Virus record (IMG/VR): IMGVR_UViG_3300042297_000287
Location: 1 to 28,243 of that record
Direction: 5' to 3' (one strand)
Origin: a virus
Lineage: Duplodnaviria; Caudoviricetes
DNA: 28,243 nucleotides
In this document: piece by piece, positions 3,895 to 8,853 of the stretch
Numbering within the stretch: the stretch's first letter is position 1
How the letters are laid out: each line of letters opens with the position of its first letter
Notes under the pieces: generated by a model
The model's database searches: none
The model's input: only the letters and a program-made list of their open reading frames with translations
What the model was told of the DNA's origin: nothing
Made by a program: the position numbers and the translations under genes

Positions 3895-4629
3895 TTATCT
3901 TAGCAAAACCTTGCGCCATACGGCTAACTTGTAAGCAAGTGCGCGGGCTCTGGGCATATTTCCTTCTTCTATTTTCCTCATGTGGTTCTTGCGATCAATC
4001 ATATTATCTGAATCGGGCTTTTCCTGCTTTGCCATTTCCTGCGCTTCAAGCCACAAGGCTTCCTTTTCCCCTTCCTTCCATTCATTGATATAACCACGCT
4101 TAACACATTCGTCGTACCAAAATACGGGTATTTCATCGAGCGGCTTTTGAAAGTTTTTCAACTTATTATCAAAATCCTTGTCATATTCCTCAGCCACTTT
4201 CCCCAGGCGTTTAATGCGATCTTCTTCTTCTTTCTTTGCCTGCAAATCGGAATCCATGGCAAAGTAAATCTTTTGCCTCCATGTTATATAAGCGGTTAAT
4301 ATTCGCCCAATGGCATGAAGGTCAACTTTGCCGTATAATTTATGATCATTAATATCAAGCTCCTGCTTTGCAAACTTTTCAAAGGCGAGTTTAATCTCAT
4401 CAACGGCAAGTAATTTGTAATTTGAAATAAAGTCCGTTACCTCCATTAAATGCTCAGGCTTTGGCTCAATGCCATACACGGGGAGCAAGTGGCTCAGGGC
4501 TTGCGCAATCTTTGGTATCGCTTCCTTTGTACCCGTTTTAAAAATCCTGAGTTCGCGGTTCTGAATTACAAGTTGCACGTCTTGTATTTTCTCTTCCACG
4601 CGGTTTGCAATCATTGGTAAATTGTTCAT
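3895..4629 (-). CDS. Replication-associated protein (helicase-loader position, like lambda P)
   Basis: Directly downstream of the initiator. Helical 244-aa ORF with no ATPase motif seen. Function inferred from synteny only. Confidence 0.5.
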   Translation of the reverse strand: MNNLPMIANRVEEKIQDVQLVIQNRELRIFKTGTKEAIPKIAQALSHLLPVYGIEPKPEHLMEVTDFISNYKLLAVDEIKLAFEKFAKQELDINDHKLYGKVDLHAIGRILTAYITWRQKIYFAMDSDLQAKKEEEDRIKRLGKVAEEYDKDFDNKLKNFQKPLDEIPVFWYDECVKRGYINEWKEGEKEALWLEAQEMAKQEKPDSDNMIDRKNHMRKIEEGNMPRARALAYKLAVWRKVLLR

Positions 4630-7705: not shown

Positions 7706-8560
7706 TTACTTTTTTATAAAGTGATTTTTTACAAGTTCAACAAATTGGGAGCATTGAGTATATGTGTTTTGTTCCATTGTTTTAAGATCGTCAATCATTT
7801 TACCTTGAGTTAATTTTGCAAAATCAATATTTTCAAAGCCATAAGCAACTCCGTATTTTTGAACATTGTAAAATTCTTCCTTTGATAAATCTTCGGAAGG
7901 TATTACGATGCTTTGGCAGCCGCAAAGAGCAGCCATTGTACTGTGATATGTATGTGGGTCGAAACTTATAAATAAAGTAATTTGATTATAAATTTCAGCC
8001 AGTTCATTTAAATTATTACATTTATCAATAATCTCGTCAATGCTAATAATCGGTAAATTAATCAAGTGTTTGTAACTCTTTAAAACATTCATTTTATAAT
8101 CAAAATCTTTGCATTTCCTTACAAGCAATCCTATTTTATCCCTTTGTTGACCAGTGTTCTGCATGATGCTTAACTTAGGATCGAGAACGGTAAGTATAAA
8201 AGATTTATCGTATTTCGTATTTCTTACAAATTCGTGGTTATATGTAATTACAAGTTCACTTTCGTTATACTCCTTATCTCCAGCGTGCCATCCTGGGTAA
8301 TACAAAACATACCTCACCACATTTTTAGCGTTAAATGGATTACCAGTTATAACCTCAGGATAAATGGTAATGGTATCATTCAACGCTGCAAGTTCTTTCG
8401 CCTTGTCAAAATTTACACAAATAGCCTTTGAATCAATCAAGGTTTTATTTGCGCAAACATAAGTTGTATAATCCTTAGACAATATTTTAGCCAAGTCATG
8501 CAAAACTTGATTCCCTCCAGACTTCCAGTCATAATCAAATGAAAAAATTAAAAATGTCAT
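7706..8560 (-). CDS. Putative glycosyltransferase (WavQ-like / GT-B-like)
   Basis: Start reassigned to ATG 8560 (MTFLIFSFDY...). SGGNQVLHDL, IYPEVITGNPFNAKNVVRYVL and FISFDPHTYHSTMAALCGCQSIVIP motifs. Confidence 0.7.
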   Translation of the reverse strand: MTFLIFSFDYDWKSGGNQVLHDLAKILSKDYTTYVCANKTLIDSKAICVNFDKAKELAALNDTITIYPEVITGNPFNAKNVVRYVLYYPGWHAGDKEYNESELVITYNHEFVRNTKYDKSFILTVLDPKLSIMQNTGQQRDKIGLLVRKCKDFDYKMNVLKSYKHLINLPIISIDEIIDKCNNLNELAEIYNQITLFISFDPHTYHSTMAALCGCQSIVIPSEDLSKEEFYNVQKYGVAYGFENIDFAKLTQGKMIDDLKTMEQNTYTQCSQFVELVKNHFIKK

Positions 8561-8573
8561 TTGCTTTGTTTTG

Positions 8574-8695
8574 TAACAAGGGCGGGAATCGAACCCGCGA
8601 CACACTCGCTTGACACCCTACACACCTCATACTTTCGTATGGAACGGACTCGAACCGTTGTCGCCAGTTGCTCTACCCAGCTGAGCTACCTTGTT
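8574..8695 (-). tRNA. tRNA-like RNA with the anticodon loop replaced by a structured insert of about 50 nt
   Basis: Perfect acceptor AACAAGG/CCTTGTT, D arm GCTC-AGCTGGGTA-GAGC and T arm GCGGG-TTCGATT-CCCGC. 122 nt long, no encoded CCA. Confidence 0.75.
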
Positions 8696-8700
8696 AAACC

Positions 8701-8769
8701 TGCAAGTGAAGGAATCTAATCTTCGTCTTTTTGCCGTCGCAAAACATTTTAACATTAAACTAACTTGCG
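8701..8769 (-). tRNA. Degenerate tRNA-like element
   Basis: GCAAGT/ACTTGC acceptor, TAGTTTAATGTTAAAAT D-arm-like segment, TTTTGC-GACG-GCAAAA hairpin in place of a 7-nt anticodon loop, and GAAGA-TTAGATT-CCTTC T-arm-like segment. Confidence 0.55.
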
Positions 8770-8772
8770 CCA

Positions 8773-8836
8773 CAAAGATATAAAAATATTCTTAAAAAAT
8801 ATTTTAAATTTGATAACAAATAAAATATTATCTTTG
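8773..8836. promoter_or_regulatory. Divergent promoter region
   Basis: TATCTTTG on the minus strand (8780-8773) and on the plus strand (8829-8836), at the point where gene orientation flips. AAAATATT occurs three times in this interval. Confidence 0.75.
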
Positions 8837-8853
8837 CAGAAAGAAAAAATAAA

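Follow-up and report, generated by a model that had tools for sequence, protein, structure and literature searches.

The window, that is, the whole 28.2-kb virus record analysed here, is estimated to be 71% complete and has the gene content of a tailed phage, with a terminase, a tape measure, a head protease, an SSB and DNA-metabolism genes. The terminase is nearest to those of Riemerella phages (46%) which, together with TAnnTTTG boxes facing outward from the gap at 8770-8840, makes a Bacteroidota host likely. The minus strand holds, at positions 8574-8695, a 122-nt element which we predict to be the gene of a tRNA-like RNA with two D-loop/T-loop elbows (double-elbow RNA). The Rfam tRNA model matches the element with 45.1 bits, against a gathering score of 29, leaving 59 nt of the anticodon region unmodelled, and no other Rfam family reaches threshold on it. 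ARAGORN run without introns calls no gene at the element, and no tmRNA at default settings; with introns allowed, as the earlier note had advised, it forces a tRNA-Pro(AGG) call in which 41 nt are intron. Against named phages, BLASTn gave short tRNA-arm matches only, none reaching 80% of the query, and a search of plasmids gave no match. Folded as a single sequence, the element is no better than its shuffles (z = -1.35; 20 of 200 shuffles equally good) and its MFE structure is not a cloverleaf, so that the case for its structure rests on homologues.

Four nucleotides upstream of the element lies a 70-nt tRNA-like gene (8700-8769, minus strand; Rfam 40.5 bits) with a 6-nt anticodon loop and an atypical T loop. 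The earlier note, which had the coordinates of the element right, left its strand unstated and missed this neighbour. The 70-nt gene is nearly identical in eight viral contigs. It precedes the double-elbow RNA in the window and in L139, and is absent before it in L002, L159 and L278, where the element directly follows the promoter box; elsewhere the double-elbow RNA sits among other tRNA-scaffold RNAs or alone between ORFs. At the eight loci with the 70-nt gene, the slot behind it is occupied by a double-elbow RNA in three and by another anticodon-defective tRNA-like gene in five. The double-elbow gene behaves as a movable cassette, and the 70-nt gene as an optional cassette of the same slot. 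In two close relatives, small phages that are 84-87% complete, the double-elbow gene is the only match to the tRNA model. The third gene, which fills the double-elbow slot in L320, L322, L324, L325 and L327, shares with the other two cassettes a GCGAC after the first anticodon-stem strand, and the cassettes appear to swap at a shared acceptor-stem start.

A TAnnTTTG box, the Bacteroidota sigma-A -7 element, is found at 8773-8780 on the minus strand, and a mirror box facing the ssb gene at 8829-8836 on the plus strand. As PMC9723704 reports this box at -12 to -5, transcription would begin near 8768, which is where the stem of the RNA cassette has its first base. The window contains 44 such boxes, against 39 expected by chance, so that it is the position of the box which speaks for a promoter; the box is kept upstream in relatives. 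A scan for sigma-70 promoters had no match at the cassette, nor was a terminator found.

On the other side, the next ATG (8560) lies 14 nt past the 3' end of the element, as the earlier note had stated, and opens a 284-aa ORF (7706-8560, minus strand) whose family is unassigned. The protein has 201 homologues and matched nothing in Pfam, PHROG or PDB, and an ESM Atlas score of 0.85 gives a weak glucosyltransferase lead. This ORF follows the element in two of 26 contexts, the others having different ORFs or RNA cassettes, and is not a constant partner of the RNA. The proposal that the element is a switch for a glycosyltransferase gene is not supported by its context, and the enzyme label itself is a weak lead.

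A search of RNA runs gave 20 rows holding part of the stretch, in small shares, and six distinct ones were compared (X1, X2, X3, X6, X7 and X18). Contigs from X6 and X7 bridge a close homologue of the element (L186:2980-3101) and X1 reaches the end of that homologue, with no joint inside; X2 and X3 do not cover the element and X18 covers part of it. Because X1, X6 and X7 cover the flanks too, their source may be DNA or a long precursor.

Anatomy and conservation of the element

The earlier note had described canonical acceptor, D and T arms around an anticodon stem with one mismatch, enclosing an insert of about 50 nt. Every piece it listed is present, and the enclosed stretch measures 54 nt (positions 34-86 of the element and one base beside them). 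The counts that follow refer to the family of the window, 26 distinct sequences which are 75-96% identical to it.

Read 5' to 3' on the minus strand, the element begins with the outer acceptor strand AACAAGG (8689-8695), which pairs with CCTTGTT (8575-8581). All seven of these pairs change on both sides within the family, 94.5% of cells are paired and none of the 14 columns is invariant; pair 1-72 is broken in nine of the 26 sequences. The outer D arm (8669-8688) is canonical, with U8, A14 and G18, and its four stem pairs are invariant in all 26. Next comes the 5' strand of an anticodon-type stem (ACTGG plus C, 8663-8668), paired with GCGAGT (8604-8609) and also returned by RNAalifold; two of its six pairs show changes in both partners, 25 of the 26 sequences lack a pair at the middle position, and the stem of the window has one G.G mismatch. 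The linker GAC (8660-8662), invariant throughout, would correspond to an inner variable loop, and its last C, judging from tRNA and YrlA anatomy, may be a second Levitt base. It is followed by the inner T arm, AACGG-TTCGAGT-CCGTT (8643-8659), with all cells paired and one of five pairs changing on both sides, the letters of its loop being partly set by the search patterns. The inner acceptor-type stem, CATAC-GAAA-GTATG (8626-8642), has 5+1 bp, a bulged A and a GAAA loop, replaced by TTTT in L145; here too all cells are paired and three of six pairs change on both sides.

The G/T-rich strand of the insert is probably a second D arm. This reduced inner D arm, TGT-AGGGTG-TCA (8610-8625), has a conserved GG and 82% of its cells paired; one of its three pairs changes in both partners, and 14 of the 26 sequences have a non-standard third pair. 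Its stem is of 2-3 bp in the window family and is returned neither by RNAalifold nor by folding, which makes it the weakest part of the two-core model in this family. After the 3' strand of the shared stem come the outer variable loop GTGTC and the outer T arm (8582-8603), whose stem is fully paired in the family with three of five pairs changing on both sides, and then the outer acceptor 3' strand with the discriminator (8574-8581). The discriminator is A in 15 sequences, T in six, G in three and C in two; in the window it is A (8574), followed by CAA, so that CCA is not encoded in this copy. Five of the 26 family members do encode it.

From 5' to 3', the insert thus runs from GAC through a T arm, a hairpin and a GG segment to the 3' strand of the shared stem. 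Because the tRNA-like domain of the YrlA Y RNA (RF02553) has the same order of variable loop, T arm, closed acceptor and D arm, as described in PMC4201824 and 10.1101/312249, we prefer to see in the insert another tRNA core, circularly permuted, which shares one 5-bp stem with the outer tRNA and points in the opposite direction. The earlier note had recognised the T-arm hairpin and the GNRA hairpin, which stand, and had not recognised a whole second core or a probable D arm in the G/T-rich strand. The model that emerges is of an RNA with two predicted elbows, no anticodon and one free acceptor end. We are highly confident that the inner T arm, the hairpin and the shared stem are real, and consider it probable that they form a true second elbow in the window family.

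Like YrlA, whose permuted core folds into an L (10.1101/312249), the element carries its T arm, closed acceptor and D arm on an anticodon-type stem with no anticodon loop and with conserved elbow bases. Unlike YrlA, it has at the other end of that stem a complete tRNA body with a free acceptor and not a module for binding Ro60. The best hit of the YrlA model on the element has 15.6 bits (E 1.9; gathering score 69) and lies off the insert, and the model has no match in 19 loci.

The covariation of the insert among homologues, which the earlier note had suggested looking for, is present. In the two-core structure 94.8% of 936 cells pair, compared with 29-42% in slid controls. Both sides change in 17 of 36 pairs, against 7.9 in shuffles, with none of 500 shuffles as high, a control which ignores relatedness. 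Ten of these 17 pairs sit in the outer acceptor and T stems, and each compensatory change within the insert has one or two sequences behind it. RNAalifold, supplied with no structure, recovers every helix but the inner D stem, and also misses the one base pair that lies past the bulge. Of the 55 columns of the insert 33 are invariant, against none in the acceptor, and the 7-bp acceptor and the T arm are intact in all members. From these alignments the elbows appear conserved and the identity elements not, with the invariance of T loops and D stems being partly circular, since the search patterns demanded specific letters there. Constrained folding, which covered 19 of 29 sequences, was mixed: the inner hairpin and the shared stem form in many of the 19, and alternative folds are seen for L145, L131, L177, L223, L180, L261, L289 and L303.

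A wider class of double-elbow genes and its relation to known RNAs

Exact-pattern scans of viral contigs gave 123 stretches (in 3 of 64 parts of the viral collection), 69, 14 and 27; further scans gave 75 metagenome-contig stretches and nine matches in 185,579 prokaryote genomes. These counts are lower bounds, as the patterns require specific D-stem and T-loop letters. One of the 14 family-pattern matches, L197, was rejected as a chance match. A descriptor run over 319 loci and the window gave 121 matches, 74 of them distinct, of which 52 were kept, those whose outer D stem has 4 bp and whose link measures 5-13 nt. The 22 that were dropped were mostly ordinary tandem tRNAs or weak parses, and included the long-stem members L160:2648, L287:2799 and L295:2194. 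The kept matches, selected on their outer features and two T arms, form 19 clusters when their inner parts are grouped at 70% identity.

The shared stem has 4 or 5 of its 5 positions paired in the tRNA register in 15 of the 19 clusters, compared with 17% of 342 cross-cluster pairings, and the summed score of 73 exceeds the maximum of 64 found in 20,000 permutations. An inner hairpin of at least 5 bp follows the inner T arm in 13 of the 19 clusters, against 26% of shuffles, and GG occurs in the inner D segment of 18, against 13 expected (P about 0.006), the limits of this segment having been set automatically and being visibly wrong in a few clusters. In the four clusters where the shared stem falls below 4 of 5, L131 reaches 5 of 5 in a shifted register and the other three (L251, L256 and L295:2483) leave it unpaired; the cluster of L096, with five sequences perhaps of gut type, has no clear inner hairpin. 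CCA is encoded at positions 74-76 in at least one member of seven of the 19 clusters. Several phages carry two or more double-elbow genes.

The inner D arm, reduced in the window family, is fully canonical in L131, L174, L130:3394, L160:2648 and L231:181, and two canonical D arms are found in longer forms (L231:181-322, L249:2482-2614, L160:2648-2795 and L287:2799-2951). In L231:181, a 7-bp inner stem is closed by a discriminator and CCA, and both anticodon stems appear by eye to be cross-paired; in L249 the inner stem is followed by G-CCA. The layout of L231:181 suggests that two tandem tRNAs exchanged strands, and the class likely goes back to neighbouring tRNA genes in which the acceptor and anticodon strands came to pair crosswise. 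The reading as two separate tRNAs in tandem, each without an anticodon, was rejected: the outer 5' strand pairs on average at 2.9 of 7 positions with the strand after the inner T arm, compared with 5-7 of 7 with the distal strand, this distal pairing being itself a selection criterion.

None of the nine matches in prokaryote genomes was parsed by the descriptor or had the layout by eye and, judging from these scans, the double-elbow layout seems virus-biased. The RNA is also present in a 270-kb phage record which lacks the putative head protein of the window, and this suggests that it has passed between unrelated phages.

Other unusual tRNA-scaffold genes came to light in the same loci. Structured cargos replace the anticodon arm in L161:2500-2626, L301:32-155 and 181-289, L130:3237-3371, L249:2251-2360, L295:3148-3265 and 4227-4372, L186:2781-2901, L273:3059-3179 and L280:1076-1215, and some of them recur between phages. 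L264:2999-3173 and L314:2044-2218, near family members, hold a different tRNA-scaffold RNA, which is 175 nt long, encloses a T loop and has its D region expanded. A further phage contig has a permuted tmRNA (L177:3139-3436, minus strand; Rfam, 64.3 bits), with a double-elbow gene immediately downstream. Compact phage elements of another layout, in which 35-40 nt separate two T loops, are found in L017, L087, L097, L038, L056, L059, L062, L050 and L039. Bacterial loci hold tandem tRNA-like genes with shrunken anticodon arms (L241:3990-4127 and L242:3983-4115, from Pseudomonas nitroreducens and Motilimonas) and a tRNA whose D arm is preceded by an additional T hairpin (L238:3990-4100; also L317).

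Among established RNAs, the canonical tRNA (RF00005) shares the outer acceptor, D arm, variable loop and T arm with the element, which differs in having no 7-nt anticodon loop, no conserved identity elements and a second core inside. A decoding tRNA was rejected because a 54-nt insert takes the place of a 7-nt anticodon loop with U33. The sequence TGTCAA, which the earlier note had tentatively seen as the remnant of an Asp(GTC) loop, is kept in seven of 26 sequences, and that idea is not upheld. The tRNA-like domain of tmRNA has an acceptor and a T arm without an anticodon, and an insert at the anticodon position. Our element differs from it in having an invariant D stem, no G3-U70, no tag frame and a length of 122 nt only; pair 3-70 is U-A in 18 family members, C-G in seven and U-G in one, and the tmRNA model reaches 13.3 bits, against a threshold of 47, over 17 nt. 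The catalytic core of a group I intron takes at least 200 nt. With an insert of 54 nt and no Rfam intron family at E values up to 10, a group I intron was rejected, and on this point, as on tmRNA, the earlier note was right. The tmRNA domain is also compared in 10.1101/312249.

Lak megaphages have tRNA genes with conserved inserts, one of which is predicted to be tRNA-like; insert-free alleles exist there and the insert may be a tRNA in normal order (10.1101/356790), whereas our element has a permuted inner core and no insert-free allele in five pattern matches. The species 1 and 2 RNAs of T4 (rnaC and rnaD) are likewise stable phage RNAs, of 119-139 nt, from a tRNA cluster and with unknown function; they were rejected as relatives, having no internal second T loop by eye and no match to the family model. 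In Rfam, tRNA is the only family that covers these elements in the window and 19 loci. The literature searched, which holds few subscription papers, gave no description of the double-elbow layout. PMC10690425 presents tRNA-like candidates in viruses without this layout, and a 16-nt core of the element is absent from six of its supplement files.

Possible functions of the double-elbow RNA

The view of the earlier note, that the element is a conserved, non-decoding tRNA mimic and not a product of decay, is borne out by the family covariation, by RNAalifold and by the 19-cluster test. A normal tRNA at the locus in related phages, which that note had named as evidence against itself, was not seen in any of the five matches of one exact-pattern scan. 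Our preferred explanation, put forward tentatively, is that the element encodes a tRNA look-alike without an anticodon, conserved in phages, which may serve as a stable early decoy and engage host factors that bind the elbow or the 3' end of tRNAs. It would be transcribed early in infection from the Bacteroidota-type promoter just upstream, released by RNase P and trimmed at its 3' end, and CCA would be added to its single free acceptor end; CCA being encoded in seven of 19 clusters makes a tRNA-type 3' maturation likely. Held by covarying pairs, the outer arms (acceptor, D and T) and the three parts of the inner core (T arm, acceptor-type stem with its cap, reduced D arm) would form two elbows, as predicted from tRNA and YrlA structure, with the second in the position of the anticodon loop. 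As this second elbow replaces the anticodon loop, the RNA could not decode and would offer no anticodon loop to cut. It might then titrate a host defence or stress factor that reads the tRNA body or the CCA end, candidate targets being toxins that modify tRNA and sensors of tRNA that is uncharged or damaged.

A trans-acting mimic is favoured because the two elbows and the pairable free acceptor end are conserved and the features read by synthetases and codons vary. The earlier note had also thought of a decoy for anticodon nucleases, which we consider doubtful: the loop that these enzymes cut is missing, and in PMC11555353 rescue by a phage tRNA was lost once its anticodon was changed, the counter-defence described there being replacement and not decoy. 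The architecture is far better supported than the function, and the decoy step is drawn from anatomy and context, no target, partner gene or phenotype having been found. A broader proposal, which we regard as possible and rather doubtful, is that phages repeatedly built bivalent anticodon-less mimics by cross-pairing tandem tRNA genes, and that these RNA inhibitors, reshuffled as cassettes behind early promoters, clamp or cross-link host tRNA-sensing defence and stress proteins.

The outer tRNA could alternatively be an expression scaffold only, with a YrlA-like elbow as cargo that disturbs or recruits the host Y RNA, Ro60 or Rtc RNA-repair pathway. The inner T-acceptor-D order matches YrlA, unrelated cargos occupy the anticodon arm in other phage genes (L161:2500, L301:32 and 181, L130:3237, L249:2251 and L186:2781), acceptor sequences are freely exchanged while the insert is kept, and a Bacteroides control genome has TROVE. 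We nevertheless find this unlikely, as no TROVE (Ro60/Rsr) gene was found in ten carrier records, five of them at least 90% complete, or among the 42 ORFs of the window (record 71% complete), no Ro60-binding stem is seen, the YrlA model misses the insert, and the fixed 5-bp spacing between the cores suggests that their joint geometry matters. Somewhat less likely still is a modulator of translation, whose single acceptor end, charged or uncharged, and elbow would bind EF-Tu, RelA or a ribosomal tRNA site and slow or redirect host translation. The intact 7-bp acceptor and T arm of all members, CCA in seven of 19 clusters and the early promoter position are consistent with such a role, which is opposed by the lack of conserved synthetase identity (the discriminator and first pairs vary), by a second elbow that would be expected to clash with the decoding centre, and by the need of small lytic phages for host translation. 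If RNase P opened the inner acceptor loop, a two-piece RNA with two CCA ends could act as a bivalent acceptor decoy, as suggested by the inner 7-bp stem of L231, closed by discriminator and CCA, and by G-CCA in L249; the YrlA of M. smegmatis is cut likewise (PMC4201824). The same source reports that YrlA stems below 7 bp stay uncut, and with an inner stem of 5+1 bp, a bulge, a GAAA cap and no CCA, this route is improbable for the window family.

Three further explanations seem very improbable. A small intron, spliced out to give a decoding tRNA as in the unexplained tRNA introns of Lak phages (conserved inserts, one tRNA-like; 10.1101/356790), is compatible with the model that ARAGORN can force; against it speak the flanks of the insert, neither of which conserves a U33 or an anticodon, the lack of matching identity elements, the five pattern matches with no insert-free allele, and RNA-library contigs from two studies with no joint within the element, contigs being prone to drop rare forms. 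If the element acted in cis on the downstream gene, as a switch or as a signal for processing, it would use the alternative helix of GCGACA and TGTCGC that the earlier note had pointed out. Both strands are present, 88.5% paired, and the ATG follows on the same strand within 14 nt; the central pair is broken in 11 of 26 sequences, 196 of 500 shuffles are as good, and the gene is there in two of 26 contexts. Lastly, a neutral scar, left when tRNA genes were duplicated or recombined and carried along with the cassette, would fit the freely recombining slot, the degenerate inner D arm and the 75-96% identity of the family to the window. Against it stand the compensatory changes in the inner helices, an insert more conserved than the acceptor, the geometry shared by 15 of 19 clusters and retention in phages with no other match to the tRNA model.

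Phage 'pseudo-tRNAs' are commonly dismissed as decay. The double-elbow RNA is kept by compensatory change and is common to small and jumbo phages, and its architecture recurs in many clusters. Engineered tRNA scaffolds are its artificial parallel. The role of non-decoding phage tRNA-like RNAs becomes directly testable with a 122-nt synthetic RNA. If the decoy explanation holds, phages would have an RNA counter-defence based on shape, in contrast to the known replacement of tRNAs, and the class may also show how permuted mimics of the YrlA kind could have come from tandem tRNA genes.
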